Assembly (NCBI GenBank): GCA_910586535.1
Contig: CAJUHS010000002.1
Span: 167,790-231,789 of the forward strand
Direction of reading: 5' to 3'
DNA length: 64,000 nt
DNA from: an uncultured Oscillospiraceae bacterium
GTDB lineage: Bacteria > Bacillota > Clostridia > Oscillospirales > Ruminococcaceae
Position 1 is the first letter of the stretch. Each line of letters starts with the position of its first letter. The translations under genes and the position numbers were made by a program. This document shows positions 17,899 through 58,736 of this stretch, piece by piece. Below the pieces are notes generated by a model. The model worked only from the letters and a program-made list of their open reading frames with translations. It was not told the DNA's origin and ran no database searches.

Positions 17899-18492
17899 TT
17901 AAAATTTTAATGTATAACCCGAAAGTCCCCAAAAAGCCATGCTTAATATACCTATATAGACCAGAAGCAGCGGATAACCCCTGAACGAATACGGCGCTTT
18001 CTCAGAATAAAGACGGTCGTAAACTATCGCCGTAAGGTACACCGCCAGTACAAAACCCAATCCCATGCCAATACCGTGTATAAAATATTCACCGAGGGTA
18101 TTGCAGCGTTCCGAGATAAGGAACAGCGAGCCAAGCACAGCACAGTTGAACGCGGAAATGTGTATATATTTTTTCATTCTGCCGAACATTGCCGGAGCAA
18201 ATCTCCACATACACAGCAATGTCAGGATATACACCGCGCCGAGAATTATTATATACACAAGAGGCGTATAAATATAGCTTTTTTCGTCGAAACTCAGCGC
18301 TTGATTGATAAAATATGTCAGTACGCTCATCAGTGCGGTTATATAGGTCACGCTCAAACCGAATCCAAGCAAGTTTTTACGGCTTCTTGAAACAATTATC
18401 AGCGTACTCGTACCGAGCGCTCCCGAAAATATTATGTTTTCGGCAAATACTGCTGTAAAAGCGGTAAGTATTATATTTTTCAGCATATCCAA
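17899..18492 (-). CDS. RnfA/NqrE-family membrane subunit
   Basis: 197 aa, 6 predicted TM, RnfA/RnfE superfamily pattern; 13-nt gap to the upstream gene. Confidence 0.65.
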   Translation of the reverse strand: MDMLKNIILTAFTAVFAENIIFSGALGTSTLIIVSRSRKNLLGFGLSVTYITALMSVLTYFINQALSFDEKSYIYTPLVYIIILGAVYILTLLCMWRFAPAMFGRMKKYIHISAFNCAVLGSLFLISERCNTLGEYFIHGIGMGLGFVLAVYLTAIVYDRLYSEKAPYSFRGYPLLLVYIGILSMAFWGLSGYTLKF

Positions 18493-18505
18493 TCAAACCG
18501 CCTTC

Positions 18506-19135
18506 CTACTTCTGAACCCGCTTTATCAGCAGGAGAATACTTCTGAACAGCGCCGCAAAAAGCCCCAGCAAAATAAATCCGCCGAAAGGATGTTCAAATA
18601 CCCTGAAGGACGAGGGCATACCGGTAATTTTCCCGCCTATCGTACCTGAAGCAAGTATCTCACGCACAGCTGAGAAGATCAAAACGGCAGCGTCGTAGCC
18701 GATTATACAGAATATTATGTCAAGAATCATTTTACCTTTTGTTTCCAGAAAAAATATTGACTCCGACCGTGTAACTATAAAGCTGTTCGTTATAAACAGA
18801 GGAAAAAATATCCCTATGGCTTCAACGCCCTCAGGCATGAGGTATTCCAGCAGCATGACCGATGGAACATAAACTACAGCGCCTATAAGCGTATAAAGGA
18901 TAATTCTTATAGTATAGACAATACTTTTCGGCACAAAGGACGATATCAAAAGAGTAAAAAAAGTTATCAGTGAAAACGCAGCAACCAGCATTACCGCGTC
19001 ATTGAAATTATTTGCCAGCACGATAACAGGTGCGATCACCATTCCGCTTACAAGGATCGGATTTTTGTTAATCAGCCCGTTCTTAATAATTTTTTTGAAA
19101 CTGTTATTATTGTCGTTACCGTTACTCACAATCAA
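18506..19135 (-). CDS. RnfE/NqrD-family membrane subunit
   Basis: 209 aa; KNGLINKNPILVSGMVIAPV resembles RnfE N-terminus (KKGLIKENPVFVQVLGMCP). 4-nt overlap with the upstream gene. Confidence 0.7.
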   Translation of the reverse strand: MIVSNGNDNNNSFKKIIKNGLINKNPILVSGMVIAPVIVLANNFNDAVMLVAAFSLITFFTLLISSFVPKSIVYTIRIILYTLIGAVVYVPSVMLLEYLMPEGVEAIGIFFPLFITNSFIVTRSESIFFLETKGKMILDIIFCIIGYDAAVLIFSAVREILASGTIGGKITGMPSSFRVFEHPFGGFILLGLFAALFRSILLLIKRVQK

Positions 19136-20157
19136 CTCTCCCGTTTATCGTCATTATCAAGCATTTCCAAGGTTTCGCTGATGCTTCCCAAAAGATTGTT
19201 TTTGATTTTTTTTCTGTGTTTTCCGTATCTGCGCTTTTTGAGCATATCCGCAAATGAAAGCGCGCGCCTGTCAAGTTCTATACCTATCGGTGACGACACT
19301 ATAGACGCGTAAACTATAGCGTTTTCCGTACCCGAATACTGGCAGAACATTATCATGCAAACGCTTACCGTAAGTCCGTACAAAAACCGGGAACTTGCAG
19401 TTTTCGGTATTACACTGTAGTCGCAGGAAAGAAATATCATGCCGAAAAGCGTCATTCCTCCCGCAAAAAAGTACAGGACAGACATCGGGTTGAAATTATA
19501 GCGTATGAACGCATACAGCCCCATGACCGCAAGCTCCGTAAAAAAAGCTATAGCGGAAATTGAACGGCGCATCATCAGAAATACTGCCGTCACAGCCAGC
19601 AGAACAATAAAGCCTGTCCCCATTGGGCCGGTAAATCTTCCAACAAGAACGTCTATAAGAGAAACCGACGACGTTCCGGTAAGAATAAAAGTTTTTGTCA
19701 TAGACTGGCTCAGAATATCCGACGGTACAACCGACGACATTGGTATATCGGTCAATATCCTCGGATATGTAAGCATATTCTCCGGAAAACAAAGGGAAGC
19801 AAACAGAAAGCCCACCGCAGCAGGATTAAATATTTCGCAGCCGTGACCTCCGAACGCGTGCTTGGCAGCCACAGCTGCAAAAATCGCAGCAGCAGCCGCT
19901 TCAAGATACGGTACAGATGCCGACATCATCAGTCCCAGCGTAAGACCGGTAATCAGCGCTGACAAATCCTTTCTGTCATGCTCTTTTTTCCTTAGCCTGA
20001 GACAAATAAGATCAGCCGCTACGCTTACAAGCACCGTTACTGCGATCACAACTACCGCTCTGAAACCATAATAGTACACCGATACTATAGCAGCTATCAG
20101 CAGTACGATAAGCATATCAGTCATTATATTAAATTCGGGTTTTCTTTTCAGCTCCAT
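19132..20157 (-). CDS. RnfD/NqrB-family membrane subunit. The C-terminal FMN-attachment motif was not seen.
   Basis: 341 aa; DLSALITG and HAFGGHGCEIFNPAAVGFLFASLCFP match the RnfD GGxGxNxFNPA signature. I could not find the SGAT-like flavinylation motif. Confidence 0.75.
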   Translation of the reverse strand: MELKRKPEFNIMTDMLIVLLIAAIVSVYYYGFRAVVVIAVTVLVSVAADLICLRLRKKEHDRKDLSALITGLTLGLMMSASVPYLEAAAAAIFAAVAAKHAFGGHGCEIFNPAAVGFLFASLCFPENMLTYPRILTDIPMSSVVPSDILSQSMTKTFILTGTSSVSLIDVLVGRFTGPMGTGFIVLLAVTAVFLMMRRSISAIAFFTELAVMGLYAFIRYNFNPMSVLYFFAGGMTLFGMIFLSCDYSVIPKTASSRFLYGLTVSVCMIMFCQYSGTENAIVYASIVSSPIGIELDRRALSFADMLKKRRYGKHRKKIKNNLLGSISETLEMLDNDDKRES

Positions 20158-20195: not shown

Positions 20196-20837
20196 TCAGT
20201 ACAGCAGACTTTTTACAGCAGCCGCCATATCCAGAGCCTTAAACAGATACGAACCTGCGACAAGTATATCCGCGCCTGAATTTTTCACAAGCTCCGCAGT
20301 ACTTCCGTTTATCCCTCCGTCGACTTCTATGGGAACCGCCCTGCCGCCGATAAGCTTTCGGGCTTCCTCTATCTTCGCTGGCATATTTGGCATAAAGCCC
20401 TGCCCCCCGAAGCCCGGCTCTACCGTCATTACCAAAAGCATATCTATTACGTCGATATACTTTTCCGCCGCAGATACAGGAGTTTTCGGCTTTATTGCAA
20501 GTCCTGCCTTTTTCCCTAAAGAATGTATTTTCTCAATTGTTTCGGCAGTATCCGATCCGGACTCGAGATGAACTGTTATGATATCCGCACCTTTTTCGGC
20601 AAATCTTTCAACGTACCTTAATGGATCTGTTATCATAAGATGAACGTCCAGTCCGGCTTTTGCCGCGTCTGCAACCGCTTTCAGAACCGGCAGACCATAG
20701 CTTATATTTGGTACGAAAACGCCGTCCATAACATCAAAATGAATATAGCGGCAGCCCGCGTCCTCAGCTCTTTTTATCTCGCTTCCAAGGTTTAGAAAAT
20801 CGGCGCTTAAAATAGAAGCCGATACAATTTTTTCCAC
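20196..20837 (-). CDS. rpe: Ribulose-phosphate 3-epimerase (GTG start)
   Basis: …IVSASILSADFLNLG…HFDVMDG… signature; GGAGGG RBS 7 nt before the GTG at 20837. Confidence 0.9.
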   Translation of the reverse strand: MEKIVSASILSADFLNLGSEIKRAEDAGCRYIHFDVMDGVFVPNISYGLPVLKAVADAAKAGLDVHLMITDPLRYVERFAEKGADIITVHLESGSDTAETIEKIHSLGKKAGLAIKPKTPVSAAEKYIDVIDMLLVMTVEPGFGGQGFMPNMPAKIEEARKLIGGRAVPIEVDGGINGSTAELVKNSGADILVAGSYLFKALDMAAAVKSLLY

Positions 20838-21197
20838 AGGATGACCCTCCAAAATGAGCGTGTGTAATTGAAGTTCCCGAATCCCTGTCAAATTACATAC
20901 GAAAGGTTAAGAAACAACCGCGTATGACAAAACTTTTACGTAAATTTCGACAGTATACCAGTATAAAAACTACACCTCATTATATTATATTATATTTTCC
21001 GAAAAAAATCAAGGTCAAATGCCAAAAAATTGACATTTGACCAAAATCTATAATATACGGACACATCAAGGTACGCTTTTACGCCGAAGCTCCCCTACGG
21101 GTATGCGTCTGCTTCCGATTGGATACCGCGCATACCACTTCAGCCGCATAAACCGTTATTGCCCGTTAATTCAGTTTATGCGGTTTTGTAAAATCGG

Positions 21198-22349
21198 TTA
21201 ATCGTAGGCAAGCTTTCGCAGGTCTGTGTCCGATATAAATGACGAAGCATTATAAAGGAAAAGCACCTGATCGTAATCCTCGGGATTCAGAAGCTGCTTA
21301 TAGGATATCTGAATATATCTCAGGTCAATAAGCGTGATCTCCGAGTAGTGCTCGGTCAAAAACGGAGCGTAACAGTGCGCGTAGGAATCCTTTATAACCA
21401 GCAGCTTTCCGCCCTCGTTACCCGACTTTATTGTAACTATCGGCGCGTTTGTTCCAAGAAATGCAGCATATTTATCCTTTACGCTAAGATAATCACGGAA
21501 ATACATACTGTCATATAGCTGCGGCTCTTCTCCGTACATGGTTGTAACGGCTACCTCACGAACATTTTCTCCGGCAGTCGGGTGCCAGATATCAATGGTA
21601 TCATTTTCCACCTTATCATACAACGCTTTAGAATAAAACGTTCCCTGAAATTCGTCTGATGCGTGTTCTATATCGTATTTATCCTCGGACAGCGGAGTAT
21701 AGCCCATTTTCTTTCCTGCTGCAGCGTAAGCAAGGTATGCGCCGCGTGTCGTCCAGTGGTGATCGGTGCGATAATAGATATACTGATACTTATTTGACTC
21801 CATAACAGGATAAACATCAAGAGTGGTGATACCCTTGCCGAAGCTTCGGTAAACATAGTTTATAACGTCCCTTTGGTTAGGATTCGGAGCATTTTTGGAC
21901 AGCTCGTCGGCGTAAATTTCCGCAGACGTGGGTACTATCATAAAAAACACGGGAACGTCGTTTTCTGAAGCAAATTTATTTACCGCATTAACGCTTTTAT
22001 CAATGGAATTGTAATCTGGTTCGGCTATGTGTTCCACAAGACGGTTCTTTAAAATATAGATCCCATTGCGCTCACGCTTTCCCAAAGACGTTTCAAGCAC
22101 GGTCTTGGACCTTATCCAGCTTGTCCGCCCGACAAAATGGTCTGAAATATATGTCTCCAGATCGTTCATATATTTTCTGTTAAACACGGTTTTCGCAGAT
22201 ATGCTCGGCATTTTCTGCAAAGGCTTGTTCTCCATTTCGGAACGCTCCTTCTTCGGCAGTAAAGTCGTCGCCACGGGAAGCGTTATCAATAAGGAAAAAA
22301 ATACTACACAGTTTATTAAACTTGAAATATTAAGCTTAAGCTTTTTCAT
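21198..22349 (-). CDS. DHHW family protein (AlgX/AlgJ-like periplasmic O-acyltransferase partner)
   Basis: 383 aa, signal/anchor N-terminus, YYRTDHHWT motif that defines the DHHW family; directly downstream of the MBOAT gene. Confidence 0.75.
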   Translation of the reverse strand: MKKLKLNISSLINCVVFFSLLITLPVATTLLPKKERSEMENKPLQKMPSISAKTVFNRKYMNDLETYISDHFVGRTSWIRSKTVLETSLGKRERNGIYILKNRLVEHIAEPDYNSIDKSVNAVNKFASENDVPVFFMIVPTSAEIYADELSKNAPNPNQRDVINYVYRSFGKGITTLDVYPVMESNKYQYIYYRTDHHWTTRGAYLAYAAAGKKMGYTPLSEDKYDIEHASDEFQGTFYSKALYDKVENDTIDIWHPTAGENVREVAVTTMYGEEPQLYDSMYFRDYLSVKDKYAAFLGTNAPIVTIKSGNEGGKLLVIKDSYAHCYAPFLTEHYSEITLIDLRYIQISYKQLLNPEDYDQVLFLYNASSFISDTDLRKLAYD

Positions 22350-22373
22350 CGGTTTATCCTTTCTGTCCGTACA

Positions 22374-23873
22374 TTAAAATCTGAAGTACAGGAACGGATT
22401 ATAGGTGGCGTCCACAAGGTAAGAGGTACACAAAAGCAACACGGCTGCCGTCACTGCGGGAGTTACGCCAGCATAAAGCTTGCCTTTTTTCTTTTTGAAA
22501 GCCGCCGCAAGCTTTCCGAACAGGTCGGTGGAAGCAAATATGCACAGCAGGAAAATAACAATATTTGAAGCCATATAGTACGCTGCCGTACTGTCCCCAA
22601 GACCGTTTCCGCCGAACATTGCTTTAAAGAACTGTCCTGCATCGGAAAGAGTGTTCGTATCGAAAAGCACCCAGCCAAACACAACAATAAGAAATGTGTA
22701 AAGTCCGCTGACAACTGAGGGAAGCTTTTTAAGCACGTTTCCCCAGCCGAGGCGCTCAATAACGATAAGCACACCGAAATAGAGCCCCCACAGGATAAAG
22801 TTCCAGCTTGCACCGTGCCACAGACCAGTAAGTCCCCACACGATAAGAAGATTGCGGATAGTTTTGCCATGACCCTTTCTATTGCCGCCCAATGGAATGT
22901 AGACGTACTCCCTGAACCATGTGCCCAGCGTAATATGCCATCTGCGCCAGAACTCGCTTACACTACGGGACAGATACGGGTGATCGAAGTTTTTAGGAAA
23001 ATTGAAACCGAGCATTTTACCCAGTCCAACCGCCATGTCGGAGTACCCCGAAAAGTCAAAATATATCTGGAAAGTAAATGCCAGTATGCCTATCCAAGCG
23101 GTCGCCGCGCTTATTTCCCTATAATCCATGGCTTTTATCTGAGTCCAGATAATGCCGATATTGTTGGCAAGAAGTACCTTTTTTGCAAGTCCCTTGACAA
23201 AAAAACAAATGCCCTCGCTTATTTTGTTAATGTTTACAGTCCGCTCGTCAAGCTCGGCGGCAACGTCCTCATAGCGGACGATAGGTCCCGCAACTATCTG
23301 GGGAAAAAGCGTTACATACGAAGTAAAGCCTATAAAGCTTTTCTGCACCTTGATATTACGCAGGTACAGGTCTATCGTATAGGACATTGACTGAAAGGTA
23401 TAAAACGATATGCCGATAGGCAAAGCCACGCGGCTTTCACTCAGACCGAAATTGTACACATCGTTTATTGCACGGTTTGCAAGTATCACGGGATTGGTTA
23501 TATCAGAGCGGAAAATGACGTTCACAGTGTCTATAATAAAGTCGCTGTACTTAAATACCGCCAGCAGACCAACGTTCATGCATACTGACACAATAAGGCA
23601 AAGTCTGCGCTTGGCGGGACTGTCGTCATATTTTGCCATAAACCGTCCAGCGGTATAGTCTATCAGCGTGGAGAACAGCATTAAAATCACATAAAAGGGT
23701 TCTCCCCAGGCGTAAAAGAAAAATCCCGACAAAAGTATCAGAAGATTTCTGGCGGGAATAACCAAATGCCTGTCACCGCCCAGCGGAACGGTTATCCTGT
23801 TTGGCAGAAAAATATACACTATCAATACCACAGGCAAAAAATAATATAAAAATGTAAGACTTGAAAATACCAT
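22374..23873 (-). CDS. MBOAT family membrane-bound O-acyltransferase (AlgI/DltB/PatA-like)
   Basis: 499 aa polytopic; conserved FWRRWHITLGTWFREYVYIPLGG His-containing MBOAT motif. Confidence 0.85.
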   Translation of the reverse strand: MVFSSLTFLYYFLPVVLIVYIFLPNRITVPLGGDRHLVIPARNLLILLSGFFFYAWGEPFYVILMLFSTLIDYTAGRFMAKYDDSPAKRRLCLIVSVCMNVGLLAVFKYSDFIIDTVNVIFRSDITNPVILANRAINDVYNFGLSESRVALPIGISFYTFQSMSYTIDLYLRNIKVQKSFIGFTSYVTLFPQIVAGPIVRYEDVAAELDERTVNINKISEGICFFVKGLAKKVLLANNIGIIWTQIKAMDYREISAATAWIGILAFTFQIYFDFSGYSDMAVGLGKMLGFNFPKNFDHPYLSRSVSEFWRRWHITLGTWFREYVYIPLGGNRKGHGKTIRNLLIVWGLTGLWHGASWNFILWGLYFGVLIVIERLGWGNVLKKLPSVVSGLYTFLIVVFGWVLFDTNTLSDAGQFFKAMFGGNGLGDSTAAYYMASNIVIFLLCIFASTDLFGKLAAAFKKKKGKLYAGVTPAVTAAVLLLCTSYLVDATYNPFLYFRF

Positions 23874-32970: not shown

Positions 32971-33651
32971 TCATGTCCTTTCAACTACTAACGTTTCTCC
33001 GTTCAGGTCGGTAACGCGAACCGCCGTACCCGTTTTTAACATTTCCCTTTCATTGGACACCGCGCTGCACTCCATAAAACGTCCCTGCAAGGTCAGCGTA
33101 ACCTTTCCCTCTCCCTCTCCGGCGGGAGGTATCGGTATGTACACCGTGGCGTTTTCGCCTATAGCATTTCTGAAATCTATAGTACCGTTCTCGGTAAGCT
33201 TTTTACTGATTTGAACAAGCTTTGCAATACCGTACATTGCAAAAAAGCCCGCCACAAGTCCAAGAGGTATAGCTCCCGCACTTGGCAGACCGCTGCTCAG
33301 CGCGGCAATTGATACCCAGCCGGATACCGCAAGAAAAGCCACTATCCCCTGCACCGTAAAGAGCTGCAATGAGGAATATGAACCGTGAACGTTCATTTCC
33401 GAACCGTCCGAAACGTCAGCGGACAGGTCTGACAAATCGATCATATCGCTGATATCTCCAGCGCCTCCAAAATCCGCTCCGCTCATGTCCCCTATATCAA
33501 TACCGCTCGTATCGCTGAGATTTACATCCGCATCCCCTCCGAAGCCGGATATTGACAATATTGTCTGCAAAAGAAGCAGAAGCGTGGACGGCACGGCAAT
33601 GCAATACAGTACCTGCACAAGCGTTGATAAGCTTTCCCACCATTCTGTCAT
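32971..33651 (-). CDS. NfeD-like (YuaF-type) membrane protein, partner of flotillin
   Basis: Membrane N-terminus, D/S/G-rich linker and C-terminal OB-fold (GKVTLTLQGRFMECSAVSNEREMLKTGTAVRVTDLNGETLVVE). AAGGGGG RBS before the internal ATG (MTEWW…). Confidence 0.75.
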   Translation of the reverse strand: MTEWWESLSTLVQVLYCIAVPSTLLLLLQTILSISGFGGDADVNLSDTSGIDIGDMSGADFGGAGDISDMIDLSDLSADVSDGSEMNVHGSYSSLQLFTVQGIVAFLAVSGWVSIAALSSGLPSAGAIPLGLVAGFFAMYGIAKLVQISKKLTENGTIDFRNAIGENATVYIPIPPAGEGEGKVTLTLQGRFMECSAVSNEREMLKTGTAVRVTDLNGETLVVERT

Positions 33652-34021
33652 ATGCTTGACCCCCTTAATGTAAATATTATTTACTATATTATAACTCCGC
33701 AGTACAGCTTTGTCAAGTAGTTTTTCAGAAAAACAAACAAAAACAACAAATAAAATACAGTAAGACACACATCAGAATACCTGAGCATTTCCAAAGCCGT
33801 CTTTTCAAGCAGTTCAGCCATGATTTTTCATCTCCCCTGCGTTTACCCTTAGTAAATTTTATTTACTTAAAGTATAACATAATGCTTCCCGTTTGTCAAT
33901 ATTTCAGGCACATATTAAATAAAAATATTTATATGCCGTACTTATTGAAGCGCCTAAGTCCGCAATTTTAAAAGTATTTCATAGCATAAGAACATATTTT
34001 GAAAATTTTTCGGTTTCCCTA

Positions 34022-34090: not shown

Positions 34091-34645
34091 ATGACTCCCG
34101 AGGAACGCGGAAGACGGATTAAGGAAGCCCGTATCTCAAAGAAAATGACTCAAAGCGAGGTTGTGGGAACATTCATTACGCGGAATATGCTCAGCCAGAT
34201 CGAAAGCGGAGCTGCCGCGCCGTCGCTGAAAACTCTCGAATATCTTGCCTCTGTACTGGATATACCTATTTCAACATTGCTTCCCCAGGGAGAAAGCGAA
34301 ATGAACGGCAATCTTCTATCTGACGCCGAGCTGCTGGTAAGCTCCAAGAAACTTTACAGCGAGGGACGTTACCGCGAAGCCGCCGCCGCTCTTCAATCTG
34401 CTGACATCAGCAGCCCGCTGTATGATGAGTTAACCGCTGTCAGAGCACGCTGCTGCCTGAGTCTTGCTGAGCAGATTGCAGATGAAAATTCCCCCAAAGC
34501 CGCAGAATATGCCAAGGAAGCCTCTGCTCTTGCGGACATTGGTTTTTTTGCCGACAGCGGCGTAAAATCAAAGGCGTTACAGCTTTTAGGGGAAATTGCA
34601 GAGAAATTAAAGAAATATTATGAAGATATTATTTCGAGTATATGA
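34091..34645 (+). CDS. XRE-family helix-turn-helix transcriptional regulator with a C-terminal TPR-like domain
   Basis: RIKEARISKKMTQSEV…MLSQIESG HTH_3 signature; 184 aa. Confidence 0.8.
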   Translation: MTPEERGRRIKEARISKKMTQSEVVGTFITRNMLSQIESGAAAPSLKTLEYLASVLDIPISTLLPQGESEMNGNLLSDAELLVSSKKLYSEGRYREAAAALQSADISSPLYDELTAVRARCCLSLAEQIADENSPKAAEYAKEASALADIGFFADSGVKSKALQLLGEIAEKLKKYYEDIISSI

Positions 34646-34664
34646 TATAAAAGGGGTATTTGTT

Positions 34665-35429
34665 ATGAATAACACACCTATAGTATTTAATCCCAACGAA
34701 CCGATTGCTCACTACGAGCAGTGCGGAAAACGCTACAGAAAAGTAAAAAAAAGACTTACTTTCGGAATTATTACAACTATTCCAGCCTTTTTTCTCGGAG
34801 CTGCCTGCATTATCTATAACCCGTGGCTCATGGCTGTTTTTGCTTTCTTTGCTATGCCGTTCACACTGCTCTCTATTATAGGATGTGCGACCAGAAAATC
34901 CAAAATCTGTTTTGCAACCATTCCTATCGGCATAATACTTGCTGTTTTATCAATTATTTCGGACTCGCTGTTCGCTCCGTTCGGAGCAGCGGCTTACCTG
35001 ATTGCAGCTTATGCTGAATTTATGGCGGTTTCCGCCTCAAACGAGTTCTACAAGCTTAAAGAGCTTCCCGGATTTCCGTTTTTTGACCCGTCCATGGACG
35101 ATATTTCTTTTGCTGCAAAGGATCACTTCGGTGCAGACGAATTTATAGACGAAAGCAGCCTGTACACAGAAAAAAGGACTTACAGATTTGATCCGAGCGA
35201 ACTTGAACCGTCAAACGAAATGGAAGAAATAGTCACCGGAATTTCTCTATTAAAAGATGGTGATACTCCCCCGCAAACCGAAAAAATCCACACCGAGAAG
35301 AGCCAAACCGAGGACGTTATACAAGCAGAACTTGCTCCCGAAATATATTCCGAAAGCGCTTATGAACAGATGATTAGCGTCATGCCCGAAAAGCGGAAAG
35401 ATATTTCGGACATAGAACTTTTTGAATAA
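34665..35429 (+). CDS. Hypothetical membrane protein (4 TM) with an acidic C-terminal tail
   Basis: AAAAGGGG RBS then ATG (MNNTPIV…); hydrophobic core then D/E-rich C-terminus; no recognised domain. Confidence 0.5.
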   Translation: MNNTPIVFNPNEPIAHYEQCGKRYRKVKKRLTFGIITTIPAFFLGAACIIYNPWLMAVFAFFAMPFTLLSIIGCATRKSKICFATIPIGIILAVLSIISDSLFAPFGAAAYLIAAYAEFMAVSASNEFYKLKELPGFPFFDPSMDDISFAAKDHFGADEFIDESSLYTEKRTYRFDPSELEPSNEMEEIVTGISLLKDGDTPPQTEKIHTEKSQTEDVIQAELAPEIYSESAYEQMISVMPEKRKDISDIELFE

Positions 35430-40550: not shown

Positions 40551-40727
40551 CTACTCCTTGTCAATAATCTCAATATTTTTAAGCTGACCCTCCAGATTGG
40601 CTTTCACACCGTCGCGGTACTCCTGCCGCAAGGCCGCCTGTTCGGCTTTTTCAGCTTCGGTAAGACCCTCCGCAGTGCGGGACTTCTTTGCCAGCTCGTT
40701 TATTCTGTCAATCTTTTTCTTATTCAT
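40551..40727 (-). CDS. DUF896/UPF0291 family small protein (YnzC-like)
   Basis: …IDRINELAKKSRTAEGLTEAEKAEQAALRQEYRDG… closely resembles B. subtilis YnzC. Confidence 0.7.
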   Translation of the reverse strand: MNKKKIDRINELAKKSRTAEGLTEAEKAEQAALRQEYRDGVKANLEGQLKNIEIIDKE

Positions 40728-41229
40728 TTCGATACTCCTTTGCAAATTCCTTTAAATACTCGTCTATCTCCTGCCGCGACTTAAAAATTATCACATTTTT
40801 ATCCTTATAGCGTTCCAGCATTTTGTATATTTCCGGCAGCTTTTCATTGGGAAAATCCACTATCCACTGTCTGAATTCTTCGTCAAATTCCTCTTCGACC
40901 CAAGGCATATCCTCCCGCTTTTTGCCGACCCTTGCCGCCGCTCCCGCCAAGCAGACTTCCAACGGAAAGTCCAGCAGAAACACCGCGTCGCAATGCTCTA
41001 AACGCGTTTCAATAGTACGCTGATAGTTGCCGTCGATTATCCACTTATCGGTACGCAAAATTTCGGACAGCCGCCTGTCAAATTCCTCCCTTTCGACAGT
41101 AGTCCTGTCGGGTCTGTGGTTGATCATATCAAGGTGGCAAAGAGGCAGACCCGTTATATCCCGCAATTGCCGTGAAAACGTGCTTTTCCCCGCCCCGGGA
41201 CTGCCAATCACAATTATTTTTCGGAACAT
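40720..41229 (-). CDS. P-loop NTPase, adenylate-kinase-like (topology modulation FlaR-like family)
   Basis: MFRKIIVIGSPGAGKSTFSRQL Walker A; about 170 aa; GGGAGGA RBS. Confidence 0.7.
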   Translation of the reverse strand: MFRKIIVIGSPGAGKSTFSRQLRDITGLPLCHLDMINHRPDRTTVEREEFDRRLSEILRTDKWIIDGNYQRTIETRLEHCDAVFLLDFPLEVCLAGAAARVGKKREDMPWVEEEFDEEFRQWIVDFPNEKLPEIYKMLERYKDKNVIIFKSRQEIDEYLKEFAKEYRNE

Positions 41230-41338
41230 ATTAATTTCCTCCCTGCACATATTTTTCCCCATTCAGATAAATATAGGCGGGAGCTCGCCAATACAAGCCT
41301 GCCCCGCCCAAGTTGTTTTATTTATGTATGCTCTATAA

Positions 41339-44476: not shown

Positions 44477-46024
44477 ATGAAAAAGAAAAACCTCGGCAGG
44501 ATTGCCGCAGCAAGTTTGGCAGCTATGACGGCTGTCTCCGCATTGAGTGTTACCGCAAGCGCAATGGTAGGCAATAACGGCATTGCAAGCGGAAGTGTTT
44601 ATCAGGTAACTATTACTGAGACCGGCTCTAACGGTGTTACTTCCACTACGACTAAATATTTCAGCAGTTCCGAGCTTGCAGACATTGCTATCAGCGGACT
44701 TGGTCAAGGTGCAGATGCAAAGAAATCTGAAACAACCGTTAACGCAGCTTTTGGCAACGGTACTGTAATTTACGTTGCAGCAAACGGCGAAATCACAAAG
44801 ACCAACACTTCCGGTCAAAAGTACACAACTTCCGGTTCCTCATCTTCAAATACCCCGAATTACGGCTCAAGCTACAATTATGCTTCAAGCACAAACAATG
44901 TTTATCTGGGTGCAAACGGAAAATGGTATCCCAACCTCTCAAGCTTGTACTCCTCCGGCACTTCACTTTCCACATCGAAGCGTGTTGACGGTCTTACTTA
45001 CGGCGAAGTAAAAAATTCTACACCAGGCGGTATTGTATATTTTGACAGAGATAGCGGTACATATTCTTCAGTTCCTACAGGTGACTACGTACAGATCTTG
45101 GGTTATTCCAGCAACTATGACGACTATTATTACAATCACAGCGACTGGGCTACATATGATATATACTATGTAAACGGTGTATACTACCCCACGCTCAGTT
45201 CTGCGCTCTCCGCAGCCGGAAATGACTACAGCAAAATCAGAAGACACAGCGATACGGGTTACACAAGACCTAAGACTAACTATTTCAGCCAGACTACAGG
45301 TATGTACTATACCACATATGCAGATGCGCTCAGAGCTTCCGGAAACAACGCTTCCAGAGTTTACTCATTTAACTATTATGCCAATGATTACTATTACGGC
45401 GATATGTATGGCTATGGCTACGGAGATCCTTACTACTACTACTGGCTCAACAATCAGAAAAACAAGGATGATGACACAACAAGCTCTAAGAACGACTCCA
45501 CTACAGCTTCCATAGGTAACAGAAAGGGTTGGACAGCCGTTGCAAAATACCTTGGCTCTCTTAAGAACGGTTCAAGCGTTTCCGTAAGCATGAATTACGA
45601 AACTTCTATTCCTTCTTCTGTAACTTCTGCTATTTATGGCAAGAATATCACAGTTAAATTTGTACTCAAAAACGGTGTTGTTTTTGCTATCAACGGAAAA
45701 AATCTTTCCACAACCGCTTCGATTGACATTGATACAACTTACAACACCAATATGGTTCCGACAAAGCTTGTTAAAGCAGCTTATAAGAAGAACGATGCTG
45801 TAAGCAATGCTCAGATCACTATCAGCGGCGGATCTTTCGGCGTAGAGGCTGACGTTACAGTTAAGTTCTCCACCAAGCGTGCAGGTTGCACTGCTAAGCT
45901 GTACCGTTACAATTCCGCAAAGGAAACTCTTTCGCTCGTTGACACAGCTAAGGTTCAGAGCAACGGCAAATGTACTTTCGGCGATGTTGATAAGGGCGGT
46001 AACTTTGTAATCATACTTTGTTAA
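44477..46024 (+). CDS. Secreted low-complexity protein with signal peptide, Ser/Thr/Gly/Asn/Tyr-rich, and three internal repeats
   Basis: N-terminal signal peptide (MKKKNLGRIAAASLAAMTAVSALSVTASA); poly-Tyr cluster (YYYGDMYGYGYGDPYYYYW); three copies of G-x-YY-P/T-T-L/Y-S/A-x-A-L-S/R-A-x-G-N-D/N. No LPXTG anchor. Confidence 0.6.
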   Translation: MKKKNLGRIAAASLAAMTAVSALSVTASAMVGNNGIASGSVYQVTITETGSNGVTSTTTKYFSSSELADIAISGLGQGADAKKSETTVNAAFGNGTVIYVAANGEITKTNTSGQKYTTSGSSSSNTPNYGSSYNYASSTNNVYLGANGKWYPNLSSLYSSGTSLSTSKRVDGLTYGEVKNSTPGGIVYFDRDSGTYSSVPTGDYVQILGYSSNYDDYYYNHSDWATYDIYYVNGVYYPTLSSALSAAGNDYSKIRRHSDTGYTRPKTNYFSQTTGMYYTTYADALRASGNNASRVYSFNYYANDYYYGDMYGYGYGDPYYYYWLNNQKNKDDDTTSSKNDSTTASIGNRKGWTAVAKYLGSLKNGSSVSVSMNYETSIPSSVTSAIYGKNITVKFVLKNGVVFAINGKNLSTTASIDIDTTYNTNMVPTKLVKAAYKKNDAVSNAQITISGGSFGVEADVTVKFSTKRAGCTAKLYRYNSAKETLSLVDTAKVQSNGKCTFGDVDKGGNFVIILC

Positions 46025-55270: not shown

Positions 55271-56146
55271 TTATTTGAACAGATCTCCGTTTTCGACCCA
55301 CAGATCCAAAGAGCTGGGATCTCCCGCCGCAGCCGCTCTGAGGACAATGCTTGTGTCCTTCATTGGAAGTGAACTGCAATTTTTTCCCACGCTTATATCA
55401 CCGTCGGCAGTTTTAAAGCTGCCGCGCTCAAAGCTCATATGAGAAACATTGCTGTTTGCCGATTTATCCGAAATAACACTCTTCACAACGGAAGCAAGCT
55501 TCTTTGACGGGAAACCATACTGTGATTTAGCATTGAACCGCAAATTAGACAACTCGCTTGCAACAGCGTCTCTCATCTTTCTGTTCATGCCCATAATATT
55601 TCCTCTTCTGTCCACAGAAAGCTCGGAAATATCCTGTCCGAAGCACTTTTCCAAAGCTTCTGCAACAACGGAATAATAAGCCTCGGTCATTTTGCCGTTT
55701 AGTATTTTAGAAGCGTTCGCAATACTGTCAATATCTACCTTTTTCATTGATTTGTTCAAAGCGTTCTGAACTCCGCTGAGATACTTTTCGTCGGAAATTT
55801 CCGTTATTTTCGCTTCGCCGCTGTTTACGTCATAATCAAACTTAAAACTGATATTTTCAGGTACGCCCTCGTCAGAAAGATTTTTCTTCATAGCATCGTC
55901 AAAATTTCCGCAGGACTTTGAAAGAGTCAGCATAGACTTAGCCGCCTTTACACGGTAATCGCCAAGACTTGCGGAAGTACCGAGTTCTTTCAGCGAATCG
56001 CTTGTAATGTTTGAGAAACGATCATATTTAAAGCCGCTGTTGTTCTTAACACCCGACGTCTGCTTAAGCGTTTTGCGGGAAGAACGATTTGCTGACAGTC
56101 CCAGCGCACTGATACGGCGGCGCATACCGCTAATATTCTTTAACAT
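55271..56146 (-). CDS. Hypothetical soluble protein (about 290 aa), third gene of the DUF1538/P-II operon
   Basis: AAAAGGGG RBS before the ATG at 56146 (MLKNISGMRRR…); Ser/Lys-rich, no recognisable domain or TM. Confidence 0.45.
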   Translation of the reverse strand: MLKNISGMRRRISALGLSANRSSRKTLKQTSGVKNNSGFKYDRFSNITSDSLKELGTSASLGDYRVKAAKSMLTLSKSCGNFDDAMKKNLSDEGVPENISFKFDYDVNSGEAKITEISDEKYLSGVQNALNKSMKKVDIDSIANASKILNGKMTEAYYSVVAEALEKCFGQDISELSVDRRGNIMGMNRKMRDAVASELSNLRFNAKSQYGFPSKKLASVVKSVISDKSANSNVSHMSFERGSFKTADGDISVGKNCSSLPMKDTSIVLRAAAAGDPSSLDLWVENGDLFK

Positions 56147-56240
56147 ATAAAAAGACCCCTTTTCGTCATATATAATATATATCGGCACAAATTCAAAAAA
56201 CTTTAGGAAAAATAACTACTTTTCCTAAAGTTTTTTGAAA

Positions 56241-56921
56241 CTATTTTACAATATCTTCTATTCTGACGCTTGTTCCCGCAAGGCCAAGCGCACTGTCAAC
56301 CGGGAGCGAGAAGCATATTCCGCGGCTTTCGGTTAGGATTCCAGCCGCGTCAAGGATATTCTGCATGACCCTTTCCCTGTCTTCCCTGCCGACAACAATG
56401 AGTACTACGTCCTTTTCAGGCTGAATTGATATGCCCAGAAATTTTGCCGCTTCTTCGCCGCCAAGTCCCAGACCGTGCAAAAGTGTTCCTCCGCGTGCCC
56501 CTGCCGCTTTGGAAGCCTCTTTGACAGCCTCAAATCCGCCTCGGTTCACAATAGTTATTATCATTTCGTATTTGGCTTCGGACATTTCGTTATCTCCCTC
56601 CGTTTCGGGTTTAGTACCGTTTATCGCAAACGCCGTTCCTGACGCTCCGCTGATAGGTACTGTAAAGGCTATACCCCTGCCTGCCTCGCTGAGAGACAGC
56701 TTTTTATTAAATGTATCGTAAAGCTTCATCACCCGTCCGTTTGGTACAAACACCGCGGCAATAACTTTTTTGTTGTCACCGAGACCAAGATAATCGAGCA
56801 TAGCCGAGTCAGCCGAACCGTGACCGTGAAGCAGGAAACGGCACGGAAGATTCTCCCGCTCAAGAATGCTGTGTACGTCCTGCGCGCGTCTATAGTCCGC
56901 TATCAGAAACATTGCTTTCAC
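56241..56921 (-). CDS. Tandem P-II-like (GlnB superfamily fold) protein, two about 100-aa repeats
   Basis: Two halves each with a P-II-like pattern (GARGGTLLHGLGLGGEE… / …EAGRGIAFTVPI). Probable GTG start with GGAGAG RBS; located immediately downstream of the DUF1538 gene. Confidence 0.55.
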   Translation of the reverse strand: MKAMFLIADYRRAQDVHSILERENLPCRFLLHGHGSADSAMLDYLGLGDNKKVIAAVFVPNGRVMKLYDTFNKKLSLSEAGRGIAFTVPISGASGTAFAINGTKPETEGDNEMSEAKYEMIITIVNRGGFEAVKEASKAAGARGGTLLHGLGLGGEEAAKFLGISIQPEKDVVLIVVGREDRERVMQNILDAAGILTESRGICFSLPVDSALGLAGTSVRIEDIVK

Positions 56922-57003
56922 TTTCCGGCTCTCCTTTCTCGTGCGTGGTATTTTTACTTTTAGATTAAATCCCCTAACTATCAAAATTCATTTGCATCTG
57001 TCG

Positions 57004-58575
57004 TTATTTCTGAGTACCCACATCAAGGCTCGACTTAGTATCCGTAAAAACAGCCATGTCGCAGCTCTCGTCCAAAACGATCGGGAATACCTGTCCGCTC
57101 TCGCATATACGGTCGGACCTGACAGTCTTAAACCTGCTGATAAGACCTAATATCTGGATGGTCAGCAAAGGAGTCATAGCTACCATTGCAACGATCCCGA
57201 ATGCGTCGGTGGAAATATTTCCTCCTCTGGCAGCACAGGCTCCCATAGCAAGAGGAAGCAGAAATGTGGCAGTTAATGGTCCGGAGGCAACGCCGCCGGC
57301 GTCAAACGCTACCGAAGTAAAAATAGGCGGTACAAGCAAGCTTATAATAAGAGCAAGAACATAGCCGGGTACCAAAAACCATAAAATGGATACTCCAGTG
57401 AGCACCCTAACCATGGATATACCGACCGAAGCGGCAACGCCCAGCGCAAGGCTTATCCCAAGAGAACGCCCGGAAATACGTCCTTCGGTAATTGTCTCAA
57501 CCTGCTGCTTCAGCACGTGTACCGCAGGCTCTGCCGATACGATAAAGTAGCCGATCAGCGCACCTATAGGGACAAGCAGCCAGGAGCCTCTTCCTCCCGC
57601 AAGATTTTCTCCTATGTGCTGACCGACAGGCATAAACCCCACGTTTGCCCCTGTCAGAAACAGTACCAGTCCTACATATGTGAATCCAAGTCCCACAAAA
57701 ATTTTAAGCATGGTTTTCGTGTCAAGCTTGAGAAATATTACATCAAAAACAAGAAAGAAAACCACAATAGGAATAAATGCTGAAGCCACGTCCTCTATGT
57801 AATGCGGAAAAGCCCGCAGAAATTCGCGGAAACTTTCAGAAATAATATCATAATTTTCAGGATGAGTAAGAGTCTGTTCGGCAGTTTCGGTACTGTTCAG
57901 AGCGCCAAGCAAAAGCACGGTAAGGATAGGTCCGATAGAACACATAGCAACCAGGCCGAAGCTGTCCTCCGCAGAGGTCTTATCGCCGCGGATAGATGAA
58001 AGTCCAAGACCGAGAGCCATTATGAACGGCACAGTAATAGGTCCGGTGGTAACTCCGCCCGAATCAAAGGCAGCCGGTATAAAGCTCGGAGAAATAAGCG
58101 GTGAACAGGCAAAAATAAATATCAGCGCATAAAAAGCTATGAATACCGCCGATATTTTTACCTGCATAAAAATACGCAGAAATGCAAGGGTAAGGAAAAT
58201 TCCCACGCCAACGCCCACCGACCATATCATGATCTGTGTATCGACAATGGGAGTCTGCTCCGCAAGAACCTTTAGGTCAGGCTCTGCAACGGTAACAAGC
58301 ACTCCTATCAGAAAACAAACCGGAAGGATAAAGGCAATTTTTCTGGACTTTGTAAGACGTGCTCCGATCTTTTCGCCGATAATTATCATAGACGTATCTG
58401 CTCCAAGCGTAAACATTCCAATGCCTACAATGAGCAAGATAGTTCCGACAAAAAAGGAAAAGAACATCTCGCCGCTGAGCGGAACGACCGTTACCGACAG
58501 CAAAAAAACCACAGCCGCCACGGGAAGCACAGCTCCCAAAGATTCTTTTATCTTTTCAATAAGGTTTTTCTGCAT
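57004..58575 (-). CDS. Fused double-DUF1538 integral membrane protein (putative permease)
   Basis: About 520 aa; two homologous halves, each about 6 TM with a conserved …VAEPD/SAEPA… motif (TVAEPDLKVLAEQ and IVSAEPAVHVLKQQ). GGAAAGGAG RBS before the ATG at 58575. Confidence 0.65.
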   Translation of the reverse strand: MQKNLIEKIKESLGAVLPVAAVVFLLSVTVVPLSGEMFFSFFVGTILLIVGIGMFTLGADTSMIIIGEKIGARLTKSRKIAFILPVCFLIGVLVTVAEPDLKVLAEQTPIVDTQIMIWSVGVGVGIFLTLAFLRIFMQVKISAVFIAFYALIFIFACSPLISPSFIPAAFDSGGVTTGPITVPFIMALGLGLSSIRGDKTSAEDSFGLVAMCSIGPILTVLLLGALNSTETAEQTLTHPENYDIISESFREFLRAFPHYIEDVASAFIPIVVFFLVFDVIFLKLDTKTMLKIFVGLGFTYVGLVLFLTGANVGFMPVGQHIGENLAGGRGSWLLVPIGALIGYFIVSAEPAVHVLKQQVETITEGRISGRSLGISLALGVAASVGISMVRVLTGVSILWFLVPGYVLALIISLLVPPIFTSVAFDAGGVASGPLTATFLLPLAMGACAARGGNISTDAFGIVAMVAMTPLLTIQILGLISRFKTVRSDRICESGQVFPIVLDESCDMAVFTDTKSSLDVGTQK

Positions 58576-58736
58576 AAACCGGCTCCTTTCCTCATTTATT
58601 TTACCCGTTAAATAAAAAAACGCATATATGCTGACAGGCAAAACCATAAAGGCAAGCCGCTATCCGTTGTATCCACTACCACGAAATTACTGCTTCCCTT
58701 ATGAAAAAGTTACTGTCGGCATAAAGCGCAAAACTT

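Follow-up and report, generated by a model that had tools for sequence, protein, structure and literature searches.

The genes considered here lie at positions 17,899 to 20,157 of a 64,000-nucleotide (nt) stretch (the window) of contig CAJUHS010000002.1, from an uncultured Oscillospiraceae bacterium (assembly GCA_910586535.1), and encode three consecutive membrane proteins that resemble the RnfD, RnfE and RnfA subunits of the Rnf electron transport complex; we label them D', E' and A'. A fourth gene encodes a DUF4015 protein of 408 amino acids (aa), which we label X, and the four together are called the module below. The initial annotation of the window had placed rpe upstream of the triplet and a membrane-anchored 408-aa protein downstream, and both lie there (Table 1), with rpe separated from D' by 38 nt. 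It had also described the triplet as translationally coupled. The gap between E' and A' is 13 nt, and the 4-nt overlap between D' and E' (TTGA) exists only if E' uses a TTG start. Judging from the sequence context, a GTG two codons (six bases) downstream may be the true start of E', as it is better spaced from a GGGAGAG ribosome-binding site, and its use would abolish the overlap. As the strong promoter-like site upstream of rpe is preceded by a terminator-like hairpin, rpe, D', E', A' and X probably form one predicted transcription unit that starts at this site.

Table 1. Features of the rpe-D'-E'-A'-X locus and of the gene pair upstream of it, in window coordinates
Feature	Position	Strand	Basis or score
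Terminator-like hairpin, 13-bp stem and T run	21042..21013	(-)	upstream of rpe, overlaps promoter-like site
Promoter-like site TTGACC-18-TATAAT	21018..20989	(-)	consensus scan, 11/12 hexamer positions; prediction
rpe, ribulose-phosphate 3-epimerase	20196..20891	(-)	TIGR01163 253.7 bits versus cut-off 212.6
D', RnfD/NqrB-fold membrane protein, 341 aa	19132..20157	(-)	PF03116 173.3 bits
E', RnfE/NqrD-fold membrane protein, 209 aa	18506..19135	(-)	PF02508 89.4 bits
A', RnfA/NqrE-fold membrane protein, 197 aa	17899..18492	(-)	PF02508 106.3 bits
X, bitopic membrane-anchored DUF4015 protein, 408 aa	16650..17876	(-)	PF13200 51.3 bits
MBOAT (499 aa) and DHHW/AlgX-like SGNH protein (383 aa) pair	21198-23873	(-)	

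The homology of D', E' and A' to Rnf subunits is real and far beyond chance, because the Pfam scores, the matches to solved structures and a structural model of D' all agree. As the initial annotation had proposed, all three proteins belong to the RnfD, RnfE and RnfA families, with scores well above the Pfam gathering cut-offs (27.7 bits for PF03116 and 23.8 bits for PF02508). When the sequences in the Protein Data Bank (PDB) were searched with phmmer, the best matches were RnfD of 7zc6 for D' (E 2.9e-22), RnfE of 9eri for E' (E 2.3e-10) and RnfA of 9eri for A' (E 1.8e-23), with Azotobacter Rnf and Vibrio Nqr ranking after these clostridial Rnf subunits. An AlphaFold model of D' (mean predicted local distance difference test score, pLDDT, 79.8) superimposed on RnfD with a template-modelling (TM) score of 0.74-0.83 and on NqrB with ~0.68, and urea transporters matched it weakly, far behind both. 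Scores against the curated NCBIfam rnf models reached 30-55% of the cut-offs, namely 111.5 versus 207 for D' (TIGR01946), 62.6 versus 213 for E' (TIGR01948) and 86.1 versus 229 for A' (TIGR01943), and those against the Nqr models were lower still (nqrB, 48 versus 350; nqrD, 47.5 versus 245; nqrE, 67.6 versus 248). NCBIfam holds no model specific to D', E' or A'. The three proteins are Rnf-fold homologues and not canonical Rnf subunits.

No C, G or B subunit is encoded in the window, just as the initial annotation had stated: a CxxCxxCxxxC ferredoxin-type motif was found in none of the reading frames of the 64 kb, Pfam scans of ~46 window open reading frames (ORFs) gave no match to RnfC, RnfG, RnfB, FMN_bind or ApbE, and genes for NqrA, NqrC and NqrF are likewise missing from the window. 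The surroundings are otherwise a housekeeping region that includes rnhB, ylqF, lepB, mltG, tmk, PBP1A, rpe and a pair of MBOAT and DHHW genes, together with RNase M5, holA, comEC, alaS, glnA-III, ackA, dnaG, sigA and secA. Among ~75 related loci, no rnfC, rnfG or rnfB gene lies within 10 kb of the module, save for a truncated C-like gene in two of them (L066 and L074), and most of the related loci have no FMN_bind, ApbE or ferredoxin-type gene.

The membrane subunits themselves have lost most of the residues that hold the redox cofactors. In Rnf and Nqr, the electron path involves a threonine of RnfD/NqrB that carries covalent flavin mononucleotide (FMN), and an intramembrane [2Fe-2S] cluster held by one cysteine per half-helix, four in RnfA-RnfE/NqrE-NqrD (two each) (PMC12174285). 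Upon inspection of D' for the FMN-linked threonine we found it absent: the canonical TTATPL pairs with SSVVPS in the alignment to RnfD. The initial annotation was thus right that the RnfD-like protein lacks the flavinylation motif and wrong about its C-terminal placement, since the site falls in an outer loop in the middle of the protein, at ~residue 144. Where canonical RnfD reads G-x-I-G-E-x-S (7zc6_D and 9eri_D), D' reads GPMGTG, and its signature is GGHGCEIFNPA (GGxGxxxFNPA), so that the GGxGxNxFNPA reported earlier holds in its GGxG..FNPA frame while the canonical N is an E. The C-terminal tail of D' is cytoplasmic, acidic and conserved in the family alignment (LSFA ... NETL). In E', both cluster cysteines are replaced (LGMCP to MVIAP and NC to NS, relative to 9eri_E and 7zc6_E); in A', the first is a serine (LGICP to LGTST) and the second is retained (NCAVLG). 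The family shares this pattern, with Ala (58/65) and Ser (51/65) at the first and second positions of E', and Ser (55/64) followed by a retained Cys (55/64) in A'. Furthermore, A' has a Leu, as do 59 of the 64 family members, at the position equivalent to E95 of NqrE, a Glu that is conserved in RnfA and NqrE and was reportedly implicated in Nqr Na+ uptake by Juarez et al. in 2009. The discontinuous-helix motifs (TN-S, FN-C and LG-S/T), which are polar and lie at the membrane centre, are still conserved. With the FMN threonine lost, along with conserved membrane glutamates and all but one of the four [2Fe-2S] cysteines, D'E'A' is unable to run the canonical Rnf electron path, and the missing cluster cysteines rule this path out irrespective of what other genes the genome contains.

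We found the module to be a conserved operon family. A word-indexed search returned 133 close relatives of D', of which the named ones bear the title "RnfABCDGE type electron transport complex subunit D" and come from Oscillospiraceae metagenome-assembled genomes (MAGs); overall, most members come from MAGs or are metagenome proteins that bear no label. A scan covering a single genome for each GTDB species yielded 66 loci, the closest match being 95% identical, from Oscillospiraceae, "Ruminococcus sp.", Huintestinicola, Faeciplasma, Acutalibacteraceae, Subdoligranulum or MAGs labelled Clostridia or Bacillota, with one outlier. This outlier (L008, JAMPIC010000014.1) is labelled "Prevotella sp."; its D' is 86% identical and its locus is fully syntenic with the Oscillospiraceae loci, and the contig is probably mis-binned. 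All named loci are Oscillospiraceae-type Clostridia. The conserved synteny that the initial annotation had proposed to look for was indeed there. In a tblastn comparison of the window proteins with 77 D'-bearing loci (a few of them duplicates), counting for each gene only the loci long enough to contain it, E' was present in 74 of 74, A' in 73 of 73 and X in 69 of 71, with rpe upstream in all 66; the MBOAT and DHHW pair was present in 41 of 62 and PBP1A in 32 of 57. The same order (rpe, often a divergent mecA, D', E', A' and a DUF4015 gene) recurs in seven metagenome contigs whose D' is 25-30% identical to the first sequence of A3, a diverse D'-family query alignment.

An exhaustive profile search of 1.84 billion cluster representatives gave 5276 hits, 410 of them at E <= 1e-30, and the D' family comprises hundreds of 50%-identity clusters. 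The best 150 of the 5276 hits score at least 173 bits; all of these have a GPMG-type sequence in place of GE.S, and a [S/T]GA[S/T] flavinylation motif is absent from them and not conserved in the family alignment. Solved canonical RnfD sequences reach 102-117 bits with the D'-family profile, and a further set divides cleanly into family members at 165 bits or above versus canonical proteins, recognised by GE.S or ATP motifs, at 137 bits or below. The ORFs of the module are intact in ~70 related loci, and pairwise ratios of nonsynonymous to synonymous substitution rates (dN/dS) against orthologues are 0.03-0.16 for D', E' and A' and 0.07-0.26 for X. The module is under strong purifying selection. 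The initial annotation had offered a degenerate remnant as one explanation of the triplet, and the missing C, G and B subunits and cofactor ligands would suit a functionless, decaying rnf operon; the intact ORFs, the low dN/dS values, the gene order kept down to 25-30% identity and the hundreds of 50%-identity clusters effectively refute it, so that we accord it a negligible probability.

Several variants of the locus were noted along the way. Fusions of D' to E' or A' were considered and none was found; the long D' homologues of 560-801 aa (P0263, P0277, P0279, P0290, P0299, P0313 and P0324) are greatly extended at the C-terminus, by stretches that match no Pfam domain and do not resemble E', A' or X. 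Between rpe and D', an opposite-strand mecA (adaptor protein) gene lies in L003, L066, L069, L074, L077 and L078, and an unannotated opposite-strand ORF of similar size in L047, L052 and L064; the clade of the window has lost mecA from this interval. Metal supply to Rpe or pentose uptake was weighed as a reason for the rpe linkage and set aside, as adjacency alone speaks for it and mecA often intervenes.

X, which the initial annotation had called unrelated, belongs to the module as its conserved fourth gene. Its product matches DUF4015, a "putative glycosyl hydrolase domain" (PF13200, gathering cut-off 27 bits), over profile positions 9-161 of 313, and distant orthologues cover more of the profile, such as the one in L066 (78 bits, positions 3-252). 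The N-terminus of X is basic and cytoplasmic, with G5, R6, Y9, R10 and K17 invariant in an alignment of 39 orthologues, and is followed by one long transmembrane helix, a disordered acidic or Thr-rich linker at ~residues 55-100, and an outer domain that folds in the AlphaFold model as a glycoside-hydrolase-like (beta/alpha)8 TIM barrel (pLDDT 72.6; barrel mostly >85). As a profile search of X against the PDB gave only a marginal match, to the DUF4015 structural-genomics entry 4s1a (E 0.014), a fold comparison was needed, and the closest solved fold relatives proved to be Cwp19 and the hydrolase domain of PgaB. Five acids (E190, D191, D214, D229 and E242) are invariant in the 39-orthologue alignment, and D254, at the end of beta-4, is acidic and at least 90% conserved; X contains no cysteine and no flavinylation motif. 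From its sequence and modelled fold, X appears to be a membrane-anchored, putative extracytoplasmic glycan hydrolase; the searched literature holds no characterised DUF4015 member.

X is missing after A' in two loci, L069 and L076. In L069 (Acutalibacteraceae), A' is followed by a 102-aa ORF, an alpha-amylase-family protein (617 aa) and a LytR-CpsA-Psr protein (L069:12385-15464), and the E' of this locus retains the first cluster Cys. In one clade, a GNAT acetyltransferase gene follows the DUF4015 gene (L072:11585-12013, L073:11297-11728 and L075:5204-5635), overlapping it by ~29 nt in L073 and L075, and these last two loci also have a GHL10 (Cwp19-type) gene within a few kb.

Traces of a redox ancestry persist in a few lineages. 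Truncated RnfC-like genes lie directly upstream of D' at L066:8893-9945 (350 aa) and L074:5945-8017 (690 aa); their products reach 135-137 bits with TIGR01945 (cut-off 246), over profile positions 141-432 only, and have an SLBB domain, a weak Complex1_51K match and two intact 4Fe-4S motifs, without the N-terminal 140 residues of RnfC. No further copies of the L066 gene turned up in a search of L001-L071. These proteins may represent intermediate evolutionary stages or what remains of an electron input. The D' of L074 is near canonical by score (204 versus 207) yet lacks the threonine, and the E' and A' of this locus lack the cysteines. In the D' of L072 (L072:8001-8963), the loop homologous to the RnfD flavinylation site reads DTSGAT, at which close relatives carry SGAV, SSAV or SGST, and the sequence looks like a decaying motif. 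Taken together, the C-like relics, the SGAT relic and the fact that the best PDB matches are clostridial Rnf subunits indicate that the module descends from a genuine Bacillota Rnf. We suggest that the loss of B and G would have come first and that of C and the cofactor ligands next, and that the DUF4015 protein would have joined at some stage of this process.

The same relics bear on whether the complex is still redox-active, with a non-covalent flavin in D' and electrons arriving from a C-like subunit or from RnfC, RnfB and RnfG encoded elsewhere. We hold this to be distinctly improbable. Such an activity would be in line with the RnfC-like proteins and their intact 4Fe-4S motifs in two distant lineages, with the DTSGAT kept in L072, with a flavinylated FMN_bind and FAD_binding_2 reductase adjoining the module in L076, and with a published NQR/RNF-like system in which the D-like subunit likewise has no flavinylation site. 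It has to contend with the family-wide loss of three of the four cluster cysteines, one position being Ala, with an FMN threonine that is not conserved and an SGAT relic that is not kept even in close relatives, with an X that offers neither cysteine nor flavinylation motif, and with the lack of FMN_bind, ApbE or ferredoxin-type genes in the window and most loci. The L076 reductase gene (L076:9589-11172, minus strand) encodes a 527-aa protein of the extracytoplasmic flavinylated reductase type and lies, convergent, just downstream of rpe-D'-E'-A'.

Among the options raised by the initial annotation, the one that agrees best with the data is a membrane module that has different partners. We see about an even chance that D'E'A' forms a non-redox, Rnf-derived membrane complex that works with X as its extracytoplasmic glycan hydrolase. 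D', E' and A' would assemble like the Rnf membrane core, and X would be held through its helix and basic N-terminus, possibly against the acidic C-terminal tail of D', such that these parts of X take the place of the lost bitopic RnfG. RnfG and NqrC consist of one N-terminal transmembrane helix and an outside globular domain (PMC12174285), and the layout of X parallels that of this subunit, which the operon has lost. The complex would take part in the processing of cell-envelope or exopolysaccharide glycans and perform no redox chemistry, with the membrane core anchoring and positioning the tethered hydrolase and possibly moving a small solute or ion linked to the process. More than passive anchoring is favoured by the conserved polar motifs at the membrane centre, an unchanged Na+ pathway is disfavoured by the loss of the canonical acidic residues, and the invariant N-terminal motif of X suggests a specific partner. 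Cell-wall genes also adjoin the module in the clade of the window, where PBP1A follows immediately downstream and the MBOAT and DHHW pair, which is typical of O-acylation of cell-wall or secreted polysaccharide, lies upstream of rpe.

Several observations weigh against this assignment. The disordered linker of X, ~45 residues long, disfavours tight docking of the catalytic domain on the core, and in L069 and L076 there is D'E'A' but no X, showing that the core is able to exist by itself. The sole invariant neighbour outside the module is rpe and no cell-wall gene, the cell-wall neighbours being limited to nearer relatives (the 41 loci with MBOAT and DHHW and the 32 with PBP1A counted above). 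Finally, D' keeps the FGGxG..FNPA core and may still bind flavin non-covalently.

D'E'A' might alternatively act on its own, as a channel or secondary transporter that conducts an ion or small solute, with X a mere genomic neighbour that has a different task, although we consider this unlikely. A transporter would accord with the weak match of the D' fold to urea transporters, which come after RnfD and NqrB, with a review that describes RnfD/NqrB as kin to Amt/UT channels and RnfA-E as symporter-like (PMC12174285), with the alternating-access architecture of RnfA/E, with the discontinuous-helix motifs kept at the membrane centre, and with the two loci that lack X. It leaves unexplained why X follows A' in nearly all loci (69/71) across very deep divergence and why its cytoplasmic N-terminal motif is invariant; moreover, acidic residues that the canonical pumps conserve in the membrane are missing, and no conserved solute-related neighbour occurs in the loci compared. 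The stand-alone ion conduit envisaged in the initial annotation therefore keeps a small share of the probability, weakened by the loss of these acids.

A third possibility, which we regard as improbable, is that D'E'A' is an ion-gradient-driven regulator in which H+ or Na+ flux switches a tethered cell-wall hydrolase, X, on and off. Its logic would be akin to that of FtsEX-controlled hydrolases or of Tol/Exb/Mot stators, and Rnf/Nqr cores shift conformation greatly, coupled to movement of the bitopic G/C subunit (PMC12174285). X shares this bitopic layout, its closest structural relative is an autolysin, and PBP1A lies immediately downstream in the clade of the window. The long disordered linker between helix and barrel would nonetheless be a poor force transmitter, the canonical ion-binding acidic residues are lost, and the proposal is pure inference.

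Compared with known systems, (rpe)-rnfD'-rnfE'-rnfA'-X is a previously undescribed operon family. Rnf itself (RnfCDGEAB, a ferredoxin:NAD+ oxidoreductase and Na+/H+ pump; 7zc6 from C. tetanomorphum and 9eri from A. woodii) shares the Pfam families of D', E' and A', and the resemblance extends to the adjacent, translationally coupled genes and to the RnfD-like fold of D'. The module differs in having no G or B, and a C-like gene only in rare basal lineages; in lacking the FMN threonine, conserved membrane glutamates and all but one of the four [2Fe-2S] cysteines, with scores below all curated Rnf/Nqr cut-offs; and in the order D-E-A-X, with a glycoside-hydrolase-like fourth gene. The NQR/RNF-like system found in Actinobacteria as well as in the candidate phyla radiation has a D-like domain that carries a fused NAD-binding domain (PF00175), and a flavinylated RnfG/NqrC-like partner, and outward electron transfer was proposed for it (Meheust et al. 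2021, Huang et al. 2024). It is, like the module, a reduced Rnf/Nqr derivative whose D-like subunit has no flavinylation site, whereas the module, found in Clostridia, has no NAD-binding domain and no FMN_bind partner and keeps both E and A; in the Pfam scan, D' has PF03116 alone, without a PF00175 fusion. That an Rnf/Nqr subunit can be retained after losing all redox cofactors has a precedent in NqrA, an RnfC homologue without cofactors that has a structural part in Na+-NQR (PMC12174285), although NqrA is just one subunit of a pump that still performs redox work, whereas in the module the whole membrane core has lost its ligands.

X in turn is 10-15% identical to Cwp19, a GHL10 peptidoglycan lytic transglycosylase of C. 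difficile, and to the GH153 poly-N-acetylglucosamine (PNAG) hydrolases PgaB/BpsB. It differs from them in belonging to Pfam DUF4015 and not to GHL10 or GH153, in being anchored by an N-terminal helix and not by cell-wall-binding repeats or in a lipoprotein/outer-membrane context, and in being genetically fixed to an Rnf-type membrane core. Full-text literature searches found no description of the module, the only "Rnf-like" system retrieved being the two-subunit NQR/RNF-like one, and a 2025 review of RNF and NQR does not mention it (PMC12174285).

Some further observations concern the carriers and the rest of the window. In two loci (L076:3785-5168 and L077:1-1362), the module has the dipicolinate synthase genes dpaA and dpaB within a few kb, and at least some carriers are therefore spore formers; a link of the module to sporulation was considered on this ground and dropped, as there is no consistent association. 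On the minus strand of the window, at 56241-58647, the gene for a 547-aa DUF1538 membrane protein precedes that for a 247-aa protein in which a weak P-II-like domain was recognised; the pair looks conserved. Window ORFs of 180-515 aa at 44477-46024 (+), 55271-56188 (-), 32971-33768 (-), 34620-35429 (+) and 40720-41262 (-) gave no Pfam match at E <= 1e-4.

These findings bear on how genomes are read. PGAP and IMG title the proteins of this family "RnfABCDGE type electron transport complex subunit D/E", and, where pathways are called by counting Rnf subunits, Rnf-type energy conservation would be attributed in error to many Oscillospiraceae MAGs from gut and rumen. In evolutionary terms, the family documents a stepwise passage from a redox pump to a non-redox module, of which intermediates persist in the form of the C-like subunit and the SGAT relic. 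In its most specific form, the proposal is that the D/E/A core of a respiratory pump was stripped of its redox cofactors and re-used as an envelope engine or transporter with a glycosidase in the slot of RnfG, which we think rather unlikely as a whole; if true, it would provide a natural "redox-free Rnf" in which the core's conformational or ion-handling role stands isolated, and would bear on whether ions pass through RnfD or through RnfA/E. The ion pathway of the Rnf/Nqr membrane domain is still debated (PMC12174285), and a cofactor-free D/E/A core under strong selection amounts to a natural dissection of that domain. For envelope biology, the module would pair the glycoside-hydrolase-like DUF4015 family with a membrane complex of its own, in gut anaerobes that are abundant.

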